Sequence record: PZ445426.1
Source: a phage
DNA length: 58,342 nt
Reading direction: 5' to 3' (one strand)
The notes under the pieces are model-generated. The model was not told where the DNA came from. It did no database searches and worked only from the letters and a program-made list of their open reading frames with translations. Shown piece after piece: positions 1,572-22,698 of the stretch (its first letter is position 1; each line of letters opens with the position of its first letter). The position numbers and the translations under genes are program-made.

Positions 1572-3068
1572 ATGGGTATTGATGCAACTCACCCGCTATA
1601 TGACAAGTGGAAGGACGCATGGGTTAAGTGCAACGACTGCTATGAGGGTGAAGATAAAATTAAGGAAGAAGGTGTTAAATATCTACCACCTTTAGCTTCC
1701 ATGCTTATTGATGGGATGAATAATCCTAATGATCTGGGCTTTCAACGTTGGCTCGCTTATCGTCTGCGTGCTAACTTCCCTGACGATTATTCAAGTGCTG
1801 TTACAAACAATTTAGGTCTGCTGCACCAGAAGCCGCCTACAATCCAGCTTCCTCCTGAAATGGAGTACATGCGGGAGCTGTGTACTGCGGACGGTGAAGA
1901 CATTATTGCTCTGCTACGTCGCATCAACGAAATGCAGTTAAAAAATGGACGTTTGGGCCTGCTGCTGGACTTGCCAAAAGGTGAGGATGTAAATAACAGA
2001 CCGTATATTAGCGTTTATGATGCTTTATCCATTATCAACTGGGATGATGGTAAAGATGAACTAGGTAATATCAACTTGAACATGGTTGTACTGGATGAAA
2101 GCGGTCCTGTACGTGTTAATCAGTTTGACTGGAAAGAAGAGAAGCGTTATCGGGTTCTGCAATTAGGTCCGATGGACACAGATGAAGTTGCAGGTGGTGC
2201 GGTTTACTCCCAGCATCTATTTATCAACAATACCAATTATGATGAAGGGCAAATGATTGCTCCTTATTATAAAGGTAATACGCTGGACGAAATACCTTTC
2301 CAGTTTGTTAATACAACAGATATTACACCAGCACCGGAAGCGCCTCCATTGTTGGGGCTAGCTAACATCTGCTTAAGCATGTACCGAAGTGACGCTGATT
2401 ACCGTCAAAGTCTGCATATGCAGGGTCAGGACACGTTAGTTGTTGTTGGTGGCTCGGGTGAGAATGGAGATAAAGCCCCTCAGCGCATCGGTCCTGGAGC
2501 GGTCATTAACGTTGCTCTTGGGGGTGACGCTAAATATGTAGGCGTTAGCGGCGATGGTTTGTCCGAGCAACGCCTTGCATTGGCAGCGGATAAGCAGGAA
2601 GCTCAGATTAAAGCTGGGCAGATGGTAAACAACACCAAGAGCACGCAGGAATCAGGCGAAGCTATGAAAACGCGTATTGCTGCGCGTACCGCTAGCCTGA
2701 TTCGAATTGCGTATACTGGTGCGGCAGGTTTGGAAAACTTGCTGAAGGTCTGCGCTAAATGGATGGGTGCTGATCCAGAGAAAGTTGTGGTTAAGCCTAA
2801 TCTTGAATTTACCAAGAGCATGTTTAACGGTCAGGACTTTGTTCAAATTATTACTGCACGCAACCTTAAGGCTCCGATCAGCTTGCAGTCTATTCATGGC
2901 TGGCTTGTTGATCAGGGCTTAACCACACTAAGCTTTGAAGAAGAAATGGCAATTCTTGAAGAGGAGCTTAAGAAGTGGCCTCTGCCTGATGATGCTAAAG
3001 CTGATTTAAACGCAGAGCAGCAAGTAAACAAAGATCCTAAGGAAGACGACGCTTCCGATAAAGAATAG
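1572..3068 (+). CDS. putative portal protein
   Basis: 498-aa ORF directly after terL; GGAGGG RBS; call by size and position. Confidence 0.55.
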   Translation: MGIDATHPLYDKWKDAWVKCNDCYEGEDKIKEEGVKYLPPLASMLIDGMNNPNDLGFQRWLAYRLRANFPDDYSSAVTNNLGLLHQKPPTIQLPPEMEYMRELCTADGEDIIALLRRINEMQLKNGRLGLLLDLPKGEDVNNRPYISVYDALSIINWDDGKDELGNINLNMVVLDESGPVRVNQFDWKEEKRYRVLQLGPMDTDEVAGGAVYSQHLFINNTNYDEGQMIAPYYKGNTLDEIPFQFVNTTDITPAPEAPPLLGLANICLSMYRSDADYRQSLHMQGQDTLVVVGGSGENGDKAPQRIGPGAVINVALGGDAKYVGVSGDGLSEQRLALAADKQEAQIKAGQMVNNTKSTQESGEAMKTRIAARTASLIRIAYTGAAGLENLLKVCAKWMGADPEKVVVKPNLEFTKSMFNGQDFVQIITARNLKAPISLQSIHGWLVDQGLTTLSFEEEMAILEEELKKWPLPDDAKADLNAEQQVNKDPKEDDASDKE

Positions 3069-3098
3069 TTGCAACTTGCAAGTTGATCGGTTTATATT
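3069..3098 (+). promoter_or_regulatory. candidate sigma70-like promoter (TTGCAA-18-TATATT) overlapping a perfect 14-bp palindrome CAACTTGCAAGTTG (3072..3085)
   Basis: hexamers and palindrome read directly; lies between portal stop and next gene. Confidence 0.3.
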
Positions 3099-3163
3099 AA
3101 CGAACACGGGGCTGGGACGGCTCAGCTCCAAAAACGTCACACGGGTGACAACGGAGATAAGAA

Positions 3164-4036
3164 ATGAAAAAGAGTTCTGTAGCTATCAGTATTGGTCTTG
3201 CTCTAATTAATCCACGCGCTCGCGGTGAAGGTGATGTGGAATTGCAATACGAGTATGCATCTGCGGAAGAAATCCCGGCAGAATTTGCAACTCTTTACGC
3301 AGAGCAGGGCGGTAAATACGTTCTTGCAAAAGTCAAAGGTGTAGCACCTGCTGATAGCGTTCGTCGTCTGGAAAGTGCGTTAGCAAAAGAGCGTAACGAT
3401 CATCGTCAGGTGAAACAACAAATTAGCGCACTGGGACGTCCAGTTGAAGAAGTCCTGGCGGATTTGGATCGTATCCCTGAGCTGGAAGCTGCTGCTAACG
3501 GTAAAGGTAATCCGGAAGACATTGAGAAGATGGTCAAAGCCCGTCTTGCTCCGCTTGAGCGCCAATTGCAAACTGTTATCACCGAGCGTGACACGGTTAA
3601 GCAGGAAATTGAAGGCTACCGCACTCGCGAAACTAAAGCGAAGATTAAAGATGCAGTTATTGCCGCTGCATCCGGTGCTAAGCTGCGTCCGTCTGCTATT
3701 GAAGATGCGGTGACTTATGCACAGTTGCAAATGACAGTCGACGAGAACGGCAATGTGGTTACGAAAGATGGGGCTGGTGTAACTCCTTACCTGACTCCGG
3801 CGGATTGGCTGAACGAAATCCTTCCGAAACGTCCGCACTGGGTTGAAGGTTCTGCTGGTGGCGGTGCATCTGGTCCTGGCGCTGGCGGTCATCACGGTGA
3901 AGACCCGTACAGTCACGACGGTTGGAACATCTCTAAGCAGATGAATCTCTGGAAAACTAATCAATCTTTAGCTAAACGCTTAGCTGAAAAGAATGGCGTA
4001 GACCCGCTGAAGCCTGTACGTCCTGCTAAGAAATAA
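3164..4036 (+). CDS. putative scaffolding protein
   Basis: 290 aa; charged, coiled-coil-like middle and Gly-rich C-terminus; between portal and capsid genes; GGAG RBS. Confidence 0.4.
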   Translation: MKKSSVAISIGLALINPRARGEGDVELQYEYASAEEIPAEFATLYAEQGGKYVLAKVKGVAPADSVRRLESALAKERNDHRQVKQQISALGRPVEEVLADLDRIPELEAAANGKGNPEDIEKMVKARLAPLERQLQTVITERDTVKQEIEGYRTRETKAKIKDAVIAAASGAKLRPSAIEDAVTYAQLQMTVDENGNVVTKDGAGVTPYLTPADWLNEILPKRPHWVEGSAGGGASGPGAGGHHGEDPYSHDGWNISKQMNLWKTNQSLAKRLAEKNGVDPLKPVRPAKK

Positions 4037-4037
4037 G

Positions 4038-4083
4038 TTGACATCCCGACGTCCCTGATGTTAAGTTTCAACACATCAGGGAC
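4038..4083 (+). promoter_or_regulatory. TTGACA hexamer (4038..4043) followed by perfect 11-bp inverted repeat GTCCCTGATGT/ACATCAGGGAC (4051..4083) upstream of capsid gene
   Basis: read directly; no U-tract after the stem so not a classic terminator. Confidence 0.3.
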
Positions 4084-4158
4084 ACGGGTTCCTAAACAGC
4101 CTTCCACGGGGAAAGGCTACCAACAGTAAACAAATCAATCCTTTTCCTGGAGACAAGT

Positions 4159-5220
4159 ATGTCTAAATCTAAAATTATTCTACCATTTGGTCGTGGTGAA
4201 ACTGACCTGACTCGTTTGAAGGATGTCATTGTCCCTGAGATCTTCACTGGTTATGTGCAGACGCAGACTGCTGAACTTTCTGCTCTGATTCAATCCGGTG
4301 CGGTTGTAATGGACGAGCGTTTATCTGCTAACCTTGCTGGTGCAGGTCTGACTTTTAACGAGCCGTTCTATAACGACCTGAAAGATGAAGACGAAGATAT
4401 CGCGGTTGATAAAGGCAATCCGTCCAAACCGTCAAACATCACTACCGGATCTGAAGTTCAGGTTCGTATGAGCCGTTCGAAATCCTGGGGTTCTGCGGAT
4501 CTGGTATCAGCTTTGATTGGTAACGACCCAATGACCGCTATCGGTAACCGCGTGTCTGCGTGGTGGGTTCGCCGTCTGCAAGCTGCATACATCGCAACCT
4601 GGAAAGGCGTATTTGCTAATGCGAAGAAATCCCATAAGGATGATCTGACGTTCGATATTTCCGGTTCTTCATTTGTAAACAACCAGACCAACTTTACCGC
4701 GTCTAACTTCATCAACGCAACTGCAACGATGGGTGATGCTGCTCGTGGTCTGACCATGATTATGGTTCACTCTACCGTTCGTAACCGTATGCGTCAGCTA
4801 AACCTGATCGACTTCATTCCGGATGCTCGCGGCGAAACTCAGTTTGAGTATTATCAGGGTCTGCGTATTATTGAAGACGACTCCATGCCGCACGAACCGT
4901 CTACTGGTGTGTTTGAAAGCTGGCTGTTCGGCCCGGGCGCGACTGCAATGGGTGCTGGATCACCGAAAGTTCCGACCGCTGTGGTGCGTGACGAAGCCGC
5001 TAACCAAGGCGCTGGTGAAGAAGTTCTTCACAACCGTGTTGAATGGATTCTGCATCCGGTTGGCCATGCTTGGGCTGCTACTCAAACTGCTAAAGGTGGT
5101 CCGTCTAACGCTGCAACTACTAACAACCTGGCCCATGAAGATTCCTGGCGTCGTGCGTTCCCTGAGCGCAAGCAGCTTAAAGTTGCGCGCCTGATCACTC
5201 GTGAGTATCAGGGTTCCTAA
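4159..5220 (+). CDS. major capsid protein
   Basis: 353-aa ORF with GGAGA RBS after the scaffold-like gene and before an intrinsic terminator; call by position. Confidence 0.55.
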   Translation: MSKSKIILPFGRGETDLTRLKDVIVPEIFTGYVQTQTAELSALIQSGAVVMDERLSANLAGAGLTFNEPFYNDLKDEDEDIAVDKGNPSKPSNITTGSEVQVRMSRSKSWGSADLVSALIGNDPMTAIGNRVSAWWVRRLQAAYIATWKGVFANAKKSHKDDLTFDISGSSFVNNQTNFTASNFINATATMGDAARGLTMIMVHSTVRNRMRQLNLIDFIPDARGETQFEYYQGLRIIEDDSMPHEPSTGVFESWLFGPGATAMGAGSPKVPTAVVRDEAANQGAGEEVLHNRVEWILHPVGHAWAATQTAKGGPSNAATTNNLAHEDSWRRAFPERKQLKVARLITREYQGS

Positions 5221-5251
5221 GGCTTCACTCAACGCCGCGCTGTAGTATTTT

Positions 5252-5277
5252 GGGGACATTTATGTCCCCTCTTTTTT
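5252..5277 (+). terminator. rho-independent terminator (GGGGACA-ttta-TGTCCCC + T-tract)
   Basis: stem-loop and T-run read directly downstream of the capsid gene. Confidence 0.6.
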
Positions 5278-5289
5278 AGGAGAACAACC

Positions 5290-5613
5290 ATGCGTTATCA
5301 ACGTTATGAACGACATGACTTGATGGAAAAATCGTTGCAGGTGGAGCCAATTTCGATTACTCTCGATCCTGCTACGATTGACACCACAACTTCAGAAGTA
5401 AAAACGGTTACTGTTAAAATAAACTTTGTCCCAGGCGGAACTACAAACAAAGCGTATAGTGCGTCAGTTGACGGTTCCTCTGCTACAATTAAAGACAACG
5501 GGGACGGTACAATTACTGTGACCACAACCGCAAGCAGTGGTACTTCAAACTTGACAGTAACGTCCAAGGCAAAGGATAGTGTTACTGGTACATGTGTTAT
5601 TAATGTGACCTAA
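5290..5613 (+). CDS. Ig-like (Big_2-like) domain protein, possible capsid decoration protein
   Basis: 107 aa; Thr/Ser/Val-rich beta-strand pattern (GDGTITVTTTASSGTSNLTVTSKA) typical of bacterial Ig-like domains; AGGAGA RBS. Confidence 0.45.
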   Translation: MRYQRYERHDLMEKSLQVEPISITLDPATIDTTTSEVKTVTVKINFVPGGTTNKAYSASVDGSSATIKDNGDGTITVTTTASSGTSNLTVTSKAKDSVTGTCVINVT

Positions 5614-5630
5614 AAAATAAGGATTAAACA

Positions 5631-6284
5631 ATGAAGACATTAATTGAAGCATTGTTAGAACTTGATCCGGAGAACCCGAATCATTGGACCAGCGATGGCT
5701 TACCTAAAGTTGATGCTCTGCGTTTCGCTACCGCTAACCCGTCTTTAACCCGCGACGATATTACAACTGCTGCTCCGCTGTTTACCCGCGATAACCGCGT
5801 GCTGGAAGAGCCCGAGCCAGTGGAACCTGTTAAATCTGCTGATCCAGTTTTACATGAATCTGTCAAACAGGAGAAAGCTCATGAAGAACAAAAGAAAGTC
5901 GCGGTTGCAACGATGCAAATCGAAGTTAAGATTAGCGAAGCATTGCGTGCTCTTCTGGAGCCGGAAAAAATCGGTGACACTTCCAGCCTAAGCGATGAAG
6001 AGCTGAAAGCGAAGCGTGAAAAGCTTAGCAATGTGGTTAAAGAGATTGCCCACACTAAGCACGCGCTGGAGCTTGCTATTGCCGACGTTCAAGCGGATCT
6101 GGATAAGATTATCGTTGAGCAGGAAAGTCGTCGTCCTAAGTCCGGTCTTACTGCAACTCAAATGTATCTTGAAGCGCAGAAAAAACGTAAACCTGAAGAC
6201 ATGCTTTCTGACCATCGCTTCCAGAACCCTATTGACGATCCGGTCGCCCGTATGGTTGCACGTAATATGATGCGTCGAGGTTAA
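5631..6284 (+). CDS. hypothetical protein (head module)
   Basis: 217-aa ORF with AAGGA RBS; acidic/coiled-coil-like; no recognisable motif. Confidence 0.45.
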   Translation: MKTLIEALLELDPENPNHWTSDGLPKVDALRFATANPSLTRDDITTAAPLFTRDNRVLEEPEPVEPVKSADPVLHESVKQEKAHEEQKKVAVATMQIEVKISEALRALLEPEKIGDTSSLSDEELKAKREKLSNVVKEIAHTKHALELAIADVQADLDKIIVEQESRRPKSGLTATQMYLEAQKKRKPEDMLSDHRFQNPIDDPVARMVARNMMRRG

Positions 6285-6338
6285 CCATGGAAATGAGCCA
6301 TAGACAATATGTGTTGTGGCTCCTCCGACGTAATAGAA

Positions 6339-6368
6339 AACGGCGTCAAGAAGACGCCGTTTCTGTTC
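6339..6368 (+). terminator. possible weak intrinsic terminator (AACGGCGTC-aagaa-GACGCCGTT + tctgtt)
   Basis: 9-bp stem read directly; poor U-tract. Confidence 0.3.
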
Positions 6369-6422
6369 CTGAAGAAGAGCTCCCGCCGCTTATCCCTACA
6401 ACCATCGCAATGAGGAAGAAAG

Positions 6423-18381: not shown

Positions 18382-20508
18382 ATGGCAACTCGTCTACATG
18401 GTATTCTGATGGATGGTTTAAATAAACCAATCATCAACGCTACAGTTGCTCTTATTGCTAAAGGGAACACAATTACCGTTCTTAATGGTAGTGAGGCTAT
18501 ATTTCGCACTGACGGATCCGGTGCGTATAATGTAACTGTCCAGACTGGTCATTATAAAGTAATCATCGGACCTCAAGGTATTGAGCCTTATAAAGCTGGG
18601 GAAATCGTCATTTATGGCGATAGTCCTGAAGGTTCGCTGAACGGATATTTAATTAACTGGGCACCGGAAGAATTAACTCCGGACGTTATTAAACAAGTCC
18701 AGCAACTTGTAGCTAACTCTGAGGAATACGCTCTGCAAGCTGGACGGTCTGCTGCTGCTGCAAACGCAGACGCTACAGACGCACGTAACAGCAAAGCGTC
18801 CGCTGCCTCTTCTGCAAGTGAAGCACTTACATATAAGAACGATTCTAAAGCTAACGCAGATGCAGCTAAACAAGCCCAGTCCAGTGCTGCGGGCTCTGCT
18901 AACACTGCAACCCAAGCTGTAACCACAATAACAAATCTCAAAAAGGATGTTGAAAAGTTAAAGTCGGATACACAGACTATTAAGAATAGTGCAGTAAGCG
19001 AGACGCAAGCAATTAAGGACACCGCTGTGTCCGAAACTACCGCGCTAAAAGACGCTGCTGCTGCTTCAGCTACGAAAGCAGCTAATAGCGCCACCGAAGC
19101 TGGAAAACAAGCAGGCAACGCAGGTACAAGCGCAACAAACGCTAAGAACCACGCAGACCGTGCAAAGACAGAAGCTGACCGTGCGGAAGCTGCTGCCAAC
19201 GATGCACCAGAAATCCAGCCGCTGCCTGATGTGTGGATACCATTTAACGATTCGCTGGATATGATTACGGGCTTTTCGCCATCATATAAAAAAATTGTTA
19301 TTGGTGACGATGAAATAACGATGCCTGGCGACAAGATTGTTAAGTTTAAACGTGCATCGAAAGCAACCTATATTAACAAATCTGGTGTGCTGACAGAGGC
19401 TGCCATTGACGAGCCACGATTTGAACGTGATGGTCTGCTTATTGAGGGGCAAAGAACAAACTACATGCTCAATTCGGAAAGTCCAGATTCTTGGGGTAAA
19501 TCTGCAAATATAAATGTCGCTGATGTTGGAACGGATAGTTTTGGTTTTACTTATGGAAAGTTTGTTTGTAATGATTCATTAATTGGGCAAAGTACAACCC
19601 TTAATATGGCATCAGTTTCAAACGCTGGGGCTGTCGATGTATCTGGCGATAATAAGTATGTGACAACATCGTTGAGATTCAAAACGGATGTTGAGCTCCA
19701 GTTAAGGATTAGGTTTGAAGCATTCGATGGCAGCACTACATCTAATCTTGGATATGTTATTGTTAATACACAGTCTTTATCAGTTAACATGAGCGGTGTA
19801 GCTGCCAGCAGGATTACCGCACGAGTCAACAAAGATGAAGCTACTGGTTGGATTTTTGTAGAGGCAACGATTCAAGCAATTGAAGAAATGTACATAACCT
19901 CTGCAATACAATATGTATCAAAAGCTGGTGGTGTTATTGAATCTGGTGACTATATTTATCTGGCCACTCCTCAGGTTGAGGATGGTTTGTGTGCATCATC
20001 TTTTATTATATCAGGAAAGACGGCGGCGACGCGCGCAAGCGATATGGTTACAGTTCCGATTAAGAATAATCTTTATAATCTTCCTTTTACGGTTCTTTGT
20101 GAGGTACATAAGAATTGGTACAAAACACCGAACGCAGCACCGCGAGTTTTTGATACTGGAGGTCATCAAACTGGAGCAGCAATCATTCTTGCATTTGGTT
20201 CTTCAGCAGATTACGATGGGTTTCCATATTGCGATATTGGTAGGTCTAACAGACGGATAAACGAAAATGCATCACTTGAAAAAATGGTTATGGGGATGCG
20301 TGTAAAGTCTGATCAGTCTACATGCGCAGTAAGTAACGGGCGTATATCTAGTGAAACAAAGACAACTTGGACTTATATTCAAAGCTCTGCAACCATTCGT
20401 ATTGGTGGTCAGACAACAACGGGGCAGCGTCATTTATTCGGGCATGTCAGAAATTTTCGAGTATGGCATAAAGCATTGACTGACCGTGAATTGAAGGAGT
20501 CTGTATGA
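18382..20508 (+). CDS. tail fibre protein
   Basis: 708 aa; N-terminal Ala/Ser/Thr/Asn-rich repetitive shaft-like region typical of side tail fibres; own RBS after AT-rich intergenic region. Confidence 0.6.
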   Translation: MATRLHGILMDGLNKPIINATVALIAKGNTITVLNGSEAIFRTDGSGAYNVTVQTGHYKVIIGPQGIEPYKAGEIVIYGDSPEGSLNGYLINWAPEELTPDVIKQVQQLVANSEEYALQAGRSAAAANADATDARNSKASAASSASEALTYKNDSKANADAAKQAQSSAAGSANTATQAVTTITNLKKDVEKLKSDTQTIKNSAVSETQAIKDTAVSETTALKDAAAASATKAANSATEAGKQAGNAGTSATNAKNHADRAKTEADRAEAAANDAPEIQPLPDVWIPFNDSLDMITGFSPSYKKIVIGDDEITMPGDKIVKFKRASKATYINKSGVLTEAAIDEPRFERDGLLIEGQRTNYMLNSESPDSWGKSANINVADVGTDSFGFTYGKFVCNDSLIGQSTTLNMASVSNAGAVDVSGDNKYVTTSLRFKTDVELQLRIRFEAFDGSTTSNLGYVIVNTQSLSVNMSGVAASRITARVNKDEATGWIFVEATIQAIEEMYITSAIQYVSKAGGVIESGDYIYLATPQVEDGLCASSFIISGKTAATRASDMVTVPIKNNLYNLPFTVLCEVHKNWYKTPNAAPRVFDTGGHQTGAAIILAFGSSADYDGFPYCDIGRSNRRINENASLEKMVMGMRVKSDQSTCAVSNGRISSETKTTWTYIQSSATIRIGGQTTTGQRHLFGHVRNFRVWHKALTDRELKESV

Positions 20509-20780
20509 AAGACTTAACGATGAAATTTAAGGATAAGAAAGCATTTGAAGATTTTCTTGTGGTTATTGATTGGGAAGGCAATGAAACTTTGCAAAATCAA
20601 ATAATGCTTGATGTCATAGGTTACACCTATGCCGAAGTTGAAAGTTTATCGGATGAACCAACACATATTCAAAATAAAGGATATTATGTAAACGTAAGGA
20701 TTATTGATGACTCATTTGATTTTACACAGTACAGTAACCACCGTGTCATTCTTGAGCAACCTTTAAGGGAGTGGGCATAA
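20505..20780 (+). CDS. hypothetical protein (possible tail fibre assembly factor)
   Basis: 91-aa ORF whose ATG overlaps the tail fibre stop (ATGA). Confidence 0.4.
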   Translation: MKDLTMKFKDKKAFEDFLVVIDWEGNETLQNQIMLDVIGYTYAEVESLSDEPTHIQNKGYYVNVRIIDDSFDFTQYSNHRVILEQPLREWA

Positions 20781-20782
20781 TT

Positions 20783-21937
20783 ATGGCTAAAACTATCACA
20801 AACATACCAAAAGATATCACTAACCTTAAAAACGGTAAGTTAGATAAGAGTGCAAACCTTAGCGACTTAGCAGATCGCGAAGTTGCCTGGTTAAACGTGC
20901 GTCCTATTGGACCTACTCCTCTTGCGGGGGATCCTGTGGACGACCTTGACGCAACTACAAAACGTTGGGTGCAGAATAAATTTGACAATGGTATCGCCAA
21001 TACATCATGGAGCGTAATAAACGCAGACCAAAGCGCGCCAGCAGTAGCCACCGTGGTTGTCGGCGGGAAAGTAGAGTCAAAATATACCAATCCTAGTTCA
21101 TCACAGTTTGCACGTCTGTACTCAAGTTCTTCATGGGGTTCTTCTAGTTATGCTGTTGTAGAGGCAGAGGGTTCTTCCAAGCACGCTTATAAATTCTATG
21201 AGAATGGCACAGTTGACTTCCGACAGTCAGGGAAGACCAACCCATTCCGCATGTATACAAATATTGGAACATGGAGTGACATAACGGACGCCACGGTATC
21301 CAACTTGACAACTAACGGAATGGACAGGGTGGCCATTTCGAGCGGCTCAGATACTCTGGTGCGCGGATATTCTATCAGCGCCACCAAACCTAATGGATAT
21401 CCAACAAAGGTTGGATATCACATGTATATTCCAGGCAATGATGCATTTGGTATAGCTTGCATGGTAATCGGTGGAGATAACGGAAAATTTTGCCGTTACT
21501 TTTTTGACATTGATGGTCAAATATATGGTTCGACCGATTACGGGAACTTCAGTTATACGAAAAATGGCACTTCTGACTCACGTGTAAAACACGGCATCGC
21601 CCCTGTTGGAGTTGACAAATCATACTCTAATATTAAAGGGCTGGAATTTGTAGAGTTCATTTATGATAATGACGAACAAAATCGAGTTCGGCATGGCGTG
21701 ATTGCACAGCAAGCAGAGGTTGTTGAGCCTTTATATGTCAAGACGCGCAAATATGTTGGCAATAATCCAGGAGAGATTGTTGAACAAAAGGAACTTGACA
21801 CAACACCTATGCTTTTGGACACTATGCATGTCGTGCAAGAACTTATAAAACGGATTGAATCTTTGCAAGAAGATAATAAGAAACTAAAAGAACTCATTTC
21901 TAATCTAAACAATTCACAGACTACAGATCTTCCATAA
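20783..21937 (+). CDS. tail fibre/spike protein with C-terminal S74-type intramolecular chaperone-like domain
   Basis: ATG 20783 preferred over track GTG 20771; SDSRVKHGI motif (Ser...Lys five residues later) followed by a helical C-terminus, resembling the self-cleaving chaperone domain of endosialidase/L-shaped fibre proteins. Confidence 0.55.
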   Translation: MAKTITNIPKDITNLKNGKLDKSANLSDLADREVAWLNVRPIGPTPLAGDPVDDLDATTKRWVQNKFDNGIANTSWSVINADQSAPAVATVVVGGKVESKYTNPSSSQFARLYSSSSWGSSSYAVVEAEGSSKHAYKFYENGTVDFRQSGKTNPFRMYTNIGTWSDITDATVSNLTTNGMDRVAISSGSDTLVRGYSISATKPNGYPTKVGYHMYIPGNDAFGIACMVIGGDNGKFCRYFFDIDGQIYGSTDYGNFSYTKNGTSDSRVKHGIAPVGVDKSYSNIKGLEFVEFIYDNDEQNRVRHGVIAQQAEVVEPLYVKTRKYVGNNPGEIVEQKELDTTPMLLDTMHVVQELIKRIESLQEDNKKLKELISNLNNSQTTDLP

Positions 21938-21953
21938 CCACATCTAACTTCCT

Positions 21954-21980
21954 CAGCGCGTCTTCGGGTGCGCTTTTATT
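21954..21980 (+). terminator. possible intrinsic terminator (AGCGC-gtcttcggGT-GCGCT + TTTTATT)
   Basis: short GC stem and T-tract read directly after the tail fibre gene. Confidence 0.4.
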
Positions 21981-22107: not shown

Positions 22108-22698
22108 ATGTCTGACATGACTCTTTTACCTACTAATCTCGGTGGCGACGGTTTCGGCGGTGAAGCTGGTGCGGCCGGTATTGGTGGCGCGATCGGTGGC
22201 TTAATTGGTTCCTGGATCGGTAATGGTTGGGGTGGCAATGGTGGTTGGGGTGGTCGCGGTAACTTCGCTGGCCCGGTGGAAGTGCAAGCTTCTGTTGACA
22301 CCAACGCAATTCTGCAAGCTATCAACAACGGTACTCTTCAGACCATTCAGGGGCAGAACGGCACTAACCTGACTGTTGAGCGCTCCGCTGCTTCTACCTA
22401 TAACGGCATCACTCAGCAGAACACTCAGAACATGCTGGCTTCCGTTCAGGGCTTTGCTGGTCTGAACACACAGATCCAGGGCGGCACCAGCCAAGTGCTC
22501 GCGGCTCTGTGTAACAACGAAGCAGCTAACATTACCCGTTCCTTCCAGGCGCAGCTAGAAGCTCAGAAGTGTTGCTGCGAAACCAACCTGAACATCGAGC
22601 GTCAAGCAGAAGCTACTCGTGCGCTCCTGCGCGATCAGCACGCACAAGCGCATAATCATAGTTATTCCAACAAAAGAAATAAGTCATTGCTGCAATAA
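22108..22698 (+). CDS. glycine-rich (glycine-zipper) protein with C-terminal Cys cluster
   Basis: 196 aa from ATG 22108 (GGAG RBS); N-terminus MSDMTLLPTNLGG then long GxxxG-rich stretch; KCCCET near C-terminus. Confidence 0.5.
   Translation: MSDMTLLPTNLGGDGFGGEAGAAGIGGAIGGLIGSWIGNGWGGNGGWGGRGNFAGPVEVQASVDTNAILQAINNGTLQTIQGQNGTNLTVERSAASTYNGITQQNTQNMLASVQGFAGLNTQIQGGTSQVLAALCNNEAANITRSFQAQLEAQKCCCETNLNIERQAEATRALLRDQHAQAHNHSYSNKRNKSLLQ

Follow-up and report, generated by a model that had tools for sequence, protein, structure and literature searches.

The window analysed here, 58,342 nt of DNA in record PZ445426.1, comes from a Seuratvirus (Queuovirinae), an E. coli siphovirus of about 58 kb, and the features described below lie on its plus strand unless stated otherwise. 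Its gene for a putative distal lateral tail-fibre subunit (20783..21937, including the stop) was delineated from the list of open reading frames and their translations, and has 384 codons running from an ATG at 20783 to a TAA at 21935-21937. A Shine-Dalgarno sequence (AGGGAG) lies 5' of the ATG, which itself sits 2 nt past the stop of an open reading frame for a 91-aa protein. A GTG at 20771 was rejected as the start, since it shares bases with the Shine-Dalgarno sequence and the ATG is the start in homologues, and minus-strand open reading frames inside the gene (20746-21090, 21144-21311, 21196-21387, 21347-21520 and 21661-21912) were treated as non-coding by-products. A consensus scan found a terminator-like hairpin (21955..21974; 8-bp stem, UUCG loop and T-run) that starts 18 nt 3' of the fibre stop codon; it is suggestive at most, because the number of promoter and terminator sites in the region was not above shuffle expectation. 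Among the sites of that scan, the hairpin alone is sensibly positioned.

Upstream lie the gene for the 91-aa protein (20505..20780; phrog_1361) and that of a 708-aa proximal lateral tail fibre (18382..20508), the upstream partner, identified by Pfam, PHROG and NCBIfam. The latter has a lambda Stf-type N-terminus (Pfam phage_tail_N, E 1.8e-22; phrog_1419) and, at residues 353-552, a domain of the spike-fibre or lectin type (NCBIfam GTA_spike_fiber, 51 bits vs a cut-off of 36), and a Pfam scan found no chaperone domain in it. The order of the cassette, with a proximal fibre of about 700 aa, the 91-aa protein and, third, a fibre with a Peptidase_S74 domain, is kept in Dru_SM1, ESCO3, KurtStettler, SIA3lw, 2G7b and tunus, and also in two metagenomic Queuovirinae contigs and E. 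coli prophages; its range takes in Seuratvirus, Nonagvirus, T5-like, lambda-like and Drexlerviridae phages as well as E. coli prophages. The 91-aa protein always stands between the two fibres. The third genes of ESCO3, KurtStettler, 2G7b, tunus and one E. coli prophage have a Pfam S74 match and the remaining ones have precomputed or annotated matches, with the sole exception of Dru_SM1, where the domain has been lost. In KurtStettler the chaperone is truncated and fused to the downstream gene, and with such gene decay in relatives, function in the source phage is likely, not guaranteed.

PHROG places the 384-aa protein in tail-fibre families (phrog_6921, E 8.6e-64), and its best sequence match in the PDB is DT57C LtfA (8hqz_d, E 1.1e-34), in agreement with the initial annotation, which had called it fibre-like. 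No search run, including those of Pfam and NCBIfam, found an enzymatic domain in it, and NCBIfam gave 0 matches for it and for the 91-aa protein. It begins with a conserved N-terminal module (residues 1-70; 20783..20992), whose median identity of 71% to homologues contrasts with tips that are only about 22% identical. Residues 1-19 are a short peptide, MAKTITNIPKDITNLK..., common to the third-gene products of five phage groups: in the alignment it is conserved in the T5-like, Seuratvirus, Nonagvirus, lambda-like and Drexlerviridae partners, with the prophage copy more divergent, and the pattern M-x-T-x-T-[VI]-IP-x-DI-[TK]-x-LK of these third products is present in the 384-aa fibre. We infer that this peptide is a docking element, and synteny together with its conservation suggests that the N-terminus is probably where the trimer attaches to the 708-aa proximal fibre. 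Residues 20-70 carry the motif NLSDLADR...TKRWV, and match residues 531-585 of DT57C LtfA and 185-224 of DT571/2 LtfB.

The middle of the protein (residues 72-263; 20996..21571) is a beta-rich, hypervariable and putatively receptor-binding tip, delimited from the identity profile and an AF2 model of a single chain of the expected intertwined trimer (overall pLDDT 71, with the N-terminal 75 residues below 60). In the model the tip has 88 strand and 11 helix residues, and its median identity to homologues is 0.22 vs 0.59-0.71 for the flanking modules. It is the equivalent of the "T5-like RBD2" of T-shaped fibres, in the domain naming of PMC11990801. The closest tip among annotated phage records belongs to the Wifcevirus WFH protein (87.6% over residues 30-370), followed by those of T5-like phA11 and phage YF01 (72-73%). 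By analogy with relatives, the likely ligand of the tip is a surface glycan, for instance O-antigen. A fold comparison gave nothing convincing for the tip beyond partial overlap with 4uw8, and is unreliable, since the model is a monomer of an intertwined trimer.

The last 121 of the 384 residues, the extreme C-terminus of the fibre (residues 264-384; 21572..21934), form a Peptidase_S74 C-terminal intramolecular chaperone domain (CIMCD, or ICA). An S74-type signature had initially been read from SDSRVKHGI, with a Ser and a Lys five residues on, and the reading stands: the motif is residues 264-272 (nt 21572-21598), with Ser264 encoded by TCT at 21572-21574 and Lys269 by AAA at 21587-21589. The HMM search proposed at the time as a check matches Pfam PF13884 (Peptidase_S74) to residues 264-316 with E 1.1e-8 and 35.7 bits, above the curated gathering score of 22 bits, and spans HMM positions 1-54 of 58. 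Ser264 and Lys269 take the first and sixth positions of this match, like the Ser and Lys of solved chaperone domains. In a PDB search with a profile of homologues, which the matches to 7dc3, 6f45, 8jov and 3gud needed, SD-x-R-x-K falls in register with SDERHK of GA-1 gp12 (3gud), SDRRIK of S16 gp37 (6f45), SDERLK of 8jov and ADLRAK of the Ala-substituted MyRF chain of 7dc3. When the C-terminal 131 residues were compared directly with PDB sequences, DT57C LtfA alone was returned besides chance coiled-coil matches (USF2 and a designed helical protein, both discarded), and T5 pb1 and endoNF were reached by fold comparison only. PF13884 is present in all but 2 of the 120 homologues listed, out of 163 found at E <= 1e-5. 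Across 103 non-redundant homologue C-termini the nucleophile position holds Ser 89 times and Cys 12 times, while 101 retain Lys269 and 99 retain Asp265; P0091 is an example of a homologue with Cys in place of the Ser. Downstream of the dyad, a G-x-IAQ-x-x-E motif is conserved, and G305, I307, A308, Q309 and E312 are nearly invariant.

The modelled fold is that of the family. Residues 264-384 are predicted to be mixed alpha/beta, with 62 helical and 22 strand residues, and a beta-hairpin at 319-338 precedes a terminal helix of residues 340-380 (21800..21922; DSSP on the AF2 model, pLDDT about 90), within which heptads with hydrophobic a and d positions can be read from the sequence at 351-375, suggesting that it forms a trimeric coiled coil. 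The early description of the C-terminus as helical and coiled-coil-like therefore fits its last 40 or so residues well and the rest, being mixed alpha/beta, only in part. An alpha/beta core, a beta-hairpin and a terminal coiled-coil helix, the elements of the CIMCD fold, are all present in the monomer model, which would be one chain of a trimer, and the layout of hairpin and coiled coil is common to the chaperones of T5 pb1 (PMC4690869) and MyRF (PMC8326128). The hallmarks of a CIMCD named so far, at the level of sequence and of fold, were thus all found, and the S74 domain is a real but ordinary feature. It has already been annotated in relatives.

By analogy with T5 pb1 and MyRF, the scissile bond is predicted to be Thr263/Ser264, such that the site and its catalytic dyad (Thr263 at 21569-71, Ser264, Asp265 and Lys269) span 21569..21589. 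A cut there would leave a mature fibre of 263 residues (28.5 kDa) and release a fragment of 121 residues (13.8 kDa), predicted masses of use to virion proteomics; the released length had been put at roughly 110 residues, which is too short even for a cut after the Ser (120 residues). The initial annotation was right to treat self-excision of the endosialidase type as an established mechanism. In T5 pb1 the Thr1263-Ser1264 bond, near Lys1269, is cut and cleavage is blocked by S1264A (PMC4690869), in MyRF a P586|S587 cut was shown by mass spectrometry (PMC8326128), and EP335 gp13, which shares 26% identity with the 384-aa fibre by tblastn, loses 11.8 kDa by LC-ESI-MS (PMC8217332); the CIMCD mechanism is also treated in PMC3742443. 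The exact bond differs in this literature, with T5 pb1 and MyRF cut before the Ser and EP335 gp13 reported as cut after it (PMC8217332). On such precedents, the fibre chaperone very probably cuts itself off after folding.

That the S74 domain helps folding and then stays in place, uncleaved or inefficiently cleaved, such that the virion would hold a full-length 42-kDa chain with a capped tip, is improbable. Cleavage in endoNF and T5 pb1 needs a sensor Arg from the preceding domain (R897 and R1250, respectively; PMC4690869, PMC3742443, PMC8326128), and no such Arg was located in the tip: none is conserved at 230-263 across homologues, and of the tip residues after position 101 only G142 and Y206, and hence no Arg, reach 90% conservation in the homologue alignment. 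MyRF has Tyr residues in place of the sensor Arg, so a basic sensor is not universal and members of the family can vary in their supporting residues (PMC8326128). The SIA3lw homologue runs on gels between proteins of 74.8 kDa and 50.6 kDa, a position compatible with a cleaved or an uncleaved chain (PMC12752171). Against a retained cap, the catalytic residues and Asp265 are intact in the 384-aa fibre and strongly conserved in its clade, and the tested members with an intact dyad (T5 pb1, MyRF and EP335 gp13) all self-cleave. Retention would also be expected to cost receptor binding, because the uncleaved T5 protein fails to compete with phage adsorption (PMC4690869).

Less probable still is that the 384-aa protein is itself no receptor-binding fibre and acts in trans as an assembly chaperone for the 708-aa fibre, an idea that has the lack of a chaperone domain in that fibre in its favour, along with the GenBank labels of positional homologues in two Queuovirinae records: "putative lateral tail fiber chaperone" in KurtStettler and "endosialidase chaperone" in ESCO3. 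These labels, however, go back to the name "Chaperone of endosialidase" used in Pfam and are misleading, and in every case characterised the domain acts intramolecularly. Residues 72-263 are hypervariable and horizontally exchanged, as is typical of receptor binding, and homologues have been modelled as distal fibres in BASEL-2 (PMC11990801). Moreover, the T5-like homologue SIA3lw ORF44 (P0055) was found in virions by mass spectrometry (PMC12752171), and EP335 gp13 binds host cells directly (PMC8217332). Finally, the notion that SDSRVK is a chance motif in an unrelated C-terminal coiled coil can be dismissed, for although the bare S-x4-K pattern is not significant (4 copies in the protein vs 2.3 expected from composition), only the copy at residue 264 falls within a significant profile match, and the Pfam match (E 1.1e-8), which exceeds the curated cut-off, the profile and fold matches to solved chaperones and the column-wise conservation together refute it.

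We are confident in reading the gene as that of a distal lateral tail-fibre subunit with a probable docking N-terminus, a hypervariable, putatively receptor-binding tip and an S74 chaperone predicted to cleave itself off. How such a subunit might mature can be sketched from T5 pb1, K1F endoNF and MyRF. The terminal coiled coil (about 351-375) would bring three chaperone domains together, and the beta-hairpins at 319-338 would embrace and template the intertwined tip. Lys269 would activate Ser264 only in a correctly folded trimer, whereupon each chain would be cut at Thr263|Ser264, and loss of the chaperone fragments from the mature fibre would uncover the distal tip. None of this changes current understanding. 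Earlier publications already cover the domain family, the way it works and its occurrence in fibres of this family. In annotation, the gene is best named as the distal subunit of a lateral tail fibre that carries a self-cleaving S74 intramolecular chaperone. For phage engineering, tip and chaperone together (residues 72-384) are the unit swapped between phages, and the chaperone has to accompany the tip in any host-range swap.

More tentatively, the three genes could be a portable host-recognition cassette that moves among the phage groups and prophages listed above, its distal S74 fibre docked via an N-terminal peptide of about 16 residues, and the fibre found here could be a natural single-RBD version of the recently described T-shaped dual-RBD fibre; the other two members of the cassette would be a proximal fibre bearing a lectin or spike-fibre domain and an obligatory 91-aa factor. 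We consider this somewhat less than an even prospect. If it is true, the single-RBD version would make it possible to tell cleanly which of the RBDs is the one that recognises the receptor, and the picture of how branched side fibres assemble would gain two new, testable details, the docking peptide and the part played by the 91-aa protein.

Among known systems, K1F endoNF (3GW6) founded the MEROPS/Pfam family S74. It is a tailspike enzyme whose stalk is a triple beta-helix, whereas all searches point to a non-enzymatic fibre tip in the 384-aa protein, and the likeness to the ICA of MyRF (7DC3), a eukaryotic membrane transcription factor, is limited to the chaperone/autocleavage domain. The L-shaped fibre of T5, pb1 (Ltf; 4UW7/4UW8), likewise ends in a C-terminal receptor-binding domain and an intramolecular chaperone. 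It is, however, one chain of 1396 aa that joins the tail directly, while the 384-aa protein seems to be added distally to a separate proximal fibre; the tip sequences of the two are unrelated, and phmmer found no detectable sequence similarity between the proteins.

In the branched lateral fibres of DT57C and DT571/2 the concept is alike, in that a second fibre protein is carried by the first, and LtfA and LtfB share NLSDLADR...TKRWV, ANTSWSVIN and the S74 domain with the 384-aa fibre. By BLASTP against DT571/2 LtfB, query residues 31-70 align with 185-224 and 72-101 with 431-460, in addition to the S74 domain, but the N-terminal 45 aa of LtfB (phiEco32 gp15-like, with a proposed docking onto LtfA/gp14) have no counterpart, which rules out docking of the LtfB type. 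The proximal protein of the window differs as well: it starts with a lambda Stf-type N-terminus and itself lacks an S74 domain, and the 91-aa gene stands between the two fibre genes.

Most relatives are T-shaped fibres of about 580 aa. Known T-shaped, dual-RBD fibres are IrisVonRoten Gp24 (Tequintavirus), EP335 gp13 and AnnaHegner Gp10 (Gordonclarkvirinae) and ManiWeber Gp114 (Wifcevirus), and BASEL-2 describes such fibres of about 580 aa as joined to proximal fibres and made up of a Gp12-like RBD1, a T5-like RBD2 and a chaperone domain (PMC11990801). The homologues of about 580 aa in T5-like and Queuovirinae genomes have this architecture and share the N-terminus (about 70% identity), an RBD2-type tip and the chaperone domain with the 384-aa fibre, in which a T5-like RBD2 is likewise followed by the C-terminal chaperone. 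The 208-aa Gp12-like or collar-like RBD1 present in P0004, P0008, P0055 and others is cleanly absent from it: at the junction ...KFDNGI|ANTSWSV... the long forms have about 205 extra residues, and a Pfam Collar match, weak to significant in the long forms, was not found in the 384-aa protein. A T-shaped dual-RBD fibre is therefore ruled out, and the fibre of this Seuratvirus should be a single-RBD form.

The fibre gene is an intact open reading frame of 384 codons plus TAA on the plus strand (20783-21937), its ATG being preceded by an AGGGAG Shine-Dalgarno sequence and placed 2 nt beyond the stop codon of the 91-aa ORF, with a terminator-like hairpin 18 nt 3' of its own stop codon. The start listed for it, GTG 20771, was rejected because homologues begin at the same Met as that of ATG 20783. 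The motif SDSRVKHGI, in which the initial annotation had picked out a Ser and a Lys five residues on, is indeed present at residues 264-272 (nt 21572-21598, plus strand), with Ser264 encoded by TCT (21572-74) and Lys269 by AAA (21587-89). The bare S-x4-K pattern carries no meaning, since it occurs four times in the fibre against 2.3 copies expected; it is the context of residue 264 that decides.

That context supports the S74-type intramolecular chaperone that had been proposed for the fibre C-terminus. The suggested HMM check against Pfam Peptidase_S74 (PF13884) was positive, with fibre residues 264-316 matching HMM positions 1-54 at 35.7 bits (E 1.1e-8; gathering score 22 bits), and the match having Ser264 at its first position and Lys269 at its sixth. 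A profile made from an alignment of 51 homologues was searched against PDB sequences and matched the MyRF ICA domain (7dc3, E 7.5e-8), S16 gp37 (6f45, E 2.8e-7), the 8jov tail fibre (E 2.7e-6) and the released chaperone of GA-1 gp12 (3gud, E 0.001); the consensus SDsRlKhdI aligned with SDRRIKKDI, SDERLKREI and SDERHKTDI in these chains and, in 7dc3, whose MyRF chain is Ala-substituted, with ADLRAKEHV. Residue 264 is Ser in 89 of 103 non-redundant homologue C-termini and Cys in 12 of them, Asp265 is retained in 99 and Lys269 in 101; farther along, G305, I307, A308 and Q309 are each kept in 97-102 and E312 in 88, all five being at least 90% conserved in the 51-homologue alignment. An AlphaFold2 model computed from the alignment (mean pLDDT 71 overall, 85-94 over the C-terminal domain) predicts that the chaperone has helices (278-285, 308-314), strands (290-293, 302-305) and a beta-hairpin (319-338), and closes with a long helix (340-380); Foldseek placed the model closest in the PDB to 7dc3 (E 1.6e-5, probability 1.00), followed by the K1F endosialidase chaperone 3gw6 (probability 0.99). 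The hydrophobic a/d positions read from the sequence of the last helix (V351, L354, I358, L361, N365, L368, I372, L375) fit the trimeric coiled coil of T5 pb1 and MyRF. By all tests applied, namely Pfam match, dyad conservation, and profile and fold matches, the C-terminus is thus an S74 chaperone domain. Some homologues carry Cys in place of the nucleophilic Ser with Asp and Lys retained (ICDERLKKNI, VCDATLKDEI), namely P0083, P0087-P0094 and P0096 from T5-like phages such as Stokescottia, and P0107/P0108 from Citrobacter; these may be self-cleaving chaperones of a Cys-Lys type.

Precedents for the cleavage itself come from three proteins. In T5 pb1 the Thr1263-Ser1264 bonds are cut, the Ser being activated by Lys1269, S1264A stops processing, and the domain competes with phage adsorption only once it has been processed (PMC4690869). 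In MyRF the cut was placed between P586 and S587 by mass spectrometry and is lost in S587A and K592A (PMC8326128), and in EP335 gp13, which is 26% identical to the 384-aa fibre by tblastn, LC-ESI-MS showed a loss of 11.8 kDa, with the cut reported after the conserved Ser (PMC8217332). From these cuts and the local sequence (NGT/SDSRVK, the slash marking the predicted cut), the most likely products are residues 1-263 (28.46 kDa, or 28.33 kDa without Met1) and 264-384 (121 residues, 13.79 kDa); the alternative, a cut one residue later, would yield 1-264 (28.55 kDa) and 265-384 (13.70 kDa). The released piece, earlier put at roughly 110 residues, is accordingly corrected to 121, or 120. No conserved sensor arginine was found in the tip (residues 72-263) in the homologue alignment, and the sensor element is known from MyRF to differ among S74 family members (PMC8326128). 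By analogy with established S74 domains, three chaperone domains would nucleate the trimer via the coiled coil, their hairpins would template the tip, and correct folding would place Lys269 to activate Ser264, upon which the chain would be cut and release would expose the distal surface. We infer this whole course of events and the exact bond by analogy, and likewise a glycan receptor; directly established are the ORF, domain, dyad, conservation pattern, synteny and, as a model, the monomer fold.

The synteny is that of a fixed trio, in which the S74 fibre follows a 708-aa proximal fibre (18382-20508, plus strand), whose N-terminus is of the lambda Stf type (Pfam phage_tail_N, E 1.8e-22) and whose residues 353-552 match GTA_spike_fiber, and a 91-aa protein (phrog_1361; 20505-20780, plus strand), which without exception lies between the two fibres. 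The same order is found in the Queuovirinae phages Dru_SM1, ESCO3 and KurtStettler, two metagenomic Queuovirinae contigs, T5-like SIA3lw, lambda-like Nesevirus 2G7b, Drexlerviridae phage tunus, and E. coli prophages, the trio there being flanked by capsid and tail-tube genes. S74 was present in all third genes scanned (ESCO3, KurtStettler, 2G7b, tunus and one prophage), and for the remaining ones it comes from precomputed or annotated matches, except in Dru_SM1, whose copy has lost it. In two of the prophages (L009, L010) the trio occupies 2887-6369, between capsid/head and tail-tube genes and not after the tail-tip genes; its first protein, of ~700 aa, shares 53% identity with residues 119-708 of the 708-aa fibre, its second has 92 aa, and its third is an S74 fibre. 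The 708-aa protein also matches the NCBIfam 'phage head spike fiber' domain and is a mosaic in its own right: it shares 90% identity with the KurtStettler protein over its N-terminal 148 residues, and 69% over residues 144-708 with the C-terminal part of T5-like SIA3lw Ltf, the N-terminal part of which has no match in it. The 91-aa gene occurs in 164 phage records, ranging over T5-like, Queuovirinae, Drexlerviridae, Dhillonvirus and lambda-like genomes as well as E. coli prophages, and 23 alignment columns of its product are invariant, among them W90 and A91 at the C-terminus. The product had no informative sequence match and its model no informative structural neighbour; it may serve as a fibre-assembly factor or adaptor.

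Phage third-gene products open with M-x-T-x-T-[VI]-IP-x-DI-[TK]-x-LK irrespective of the sequence downstream, the prophage copy being more divergent, and we infer that this peptide would dock the distal trimer on the 708-aa proximal fibre. DT57C LtfB has its own proposed N-terminal docking element, but its N-terminus is unrelated to that of the fibre, and an LtfB-type element was rejected. GenBank labels positional homologues 'putative lateral tail fiber chaperone' or 'endosialidase chaperone', which the detection of the SIA3lw homologue (P0055) in virions by mass spectrometry (PMC12752171) argues against.

Directly downstream lies a phrog_9288 gene (22108-22698, plus strand); TTG 21979 is listed as its start but is probably not the real one, since the PHROG match sets in only at Met44 (nt 22108). 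Its product had no Pfam match, and has a glycine-rich N-terminus (GGAIGGLIGSWIGNGWGGNGGWGG) and Cys in its C-terminal part (CCCETN). About 2.06 kb that L007, L008 and Dru_SM1 carry is missing from the window, the junction (22647-22652) showing a 6-bp overlap; the deletion shortens the phrog_9288 protein, which has 235 aa and the end PTPPTPPTGCC in relatives and here terminates early in HAQAHNHSYSNKRNKSLLQ, and takes out some minus-strand genes as well as the next four genes, of 122, 176, 94 and 67 aa. In KurtStettler (L006 3537-5069) an in-frame fusion joins phrog_9288 to a truncated S74 domain, the 510-aa product being annotated 'putative lateral tail fiber chaperone'. The positional homologue of the fibre in Dru_SM1, the closest annotated relative, is cut short at both ends (L001 5601-6710), starting inside the Gp12-like domain and ending ...KVGYHMDHCKK... 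without S74, which suggests that Dru_SM1 can do without the distal fibre on its propagation host.

Both the S74 family and the way it works are already well documented, and S74 in T5-like LtfA/LtfB and Queuovirinae fibre loci is already published or annotated (including PMC11990801). The observation is confirmed and the S74 interpretation supported; only the widely shared cassette with its uncharacterised 91-aa component and the RBD1-less architecture of the fibre are mildly interesting. The window backbone shares 93-95% identity with the genomes of Seurat, GottfriedDienst, SLUR25 and other Seuratvirus phages (Queuovirinae), and no phage record covers the fibre locus at 80% or more; the locus is mosaic. 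Median identity to homologues is 71% over residues 1-70, 22% over 72-263 and 59-63% over the chaperone, a pattern typical of a receptor-binding tip set between conserved assembly modules. The nearest tip in the annotated phage collection is that of myovirus WFH (Wifcevirus; 87.6% identity over residues 30-370), followed by T5-like phA11 and phage YF01 (72-73%); no match there exceeded 88% identity to this allele, and a 97% identical protein occurs in a Logan assembly.

Most of the 120 homologues listed are ~580 aa long, sharing residues 1-70 and 72-384 with the fibre and carrying ~205 extra residues between them, and DNA alignment with a long-form Queuovirinae contig showed that the window lacks exactly 624 nt (208 codons). 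That the short form is an assembly artefact was ruled out by its recurrence with different tips (P0001, P0002, P0009, P0010, P0032 and P0033, from 97% down to 43% identity) and by P0009 lying at the same gene position in an independent 60-kb contig; it is therefore a natural allele class. The long-form insert has weak to significant Pfam Collar matches and is the counterpart of the Gp12-like RBD1 in the T-shaped dual-RBD fibres known from Tequintavirus, Gordonclarkvirinae and Wifcevirus, in which a T5-like RBD2 carries the intramolecular chaperone and the whole is mounted on a proximal fibre (PMC11990801). Lacking this segment, the window fibre is therefore an RBD1-less form of the T-shaped family: whereas T-shaped fibres combine RBD1 and RBD2, it has a single receptor-binding domain.
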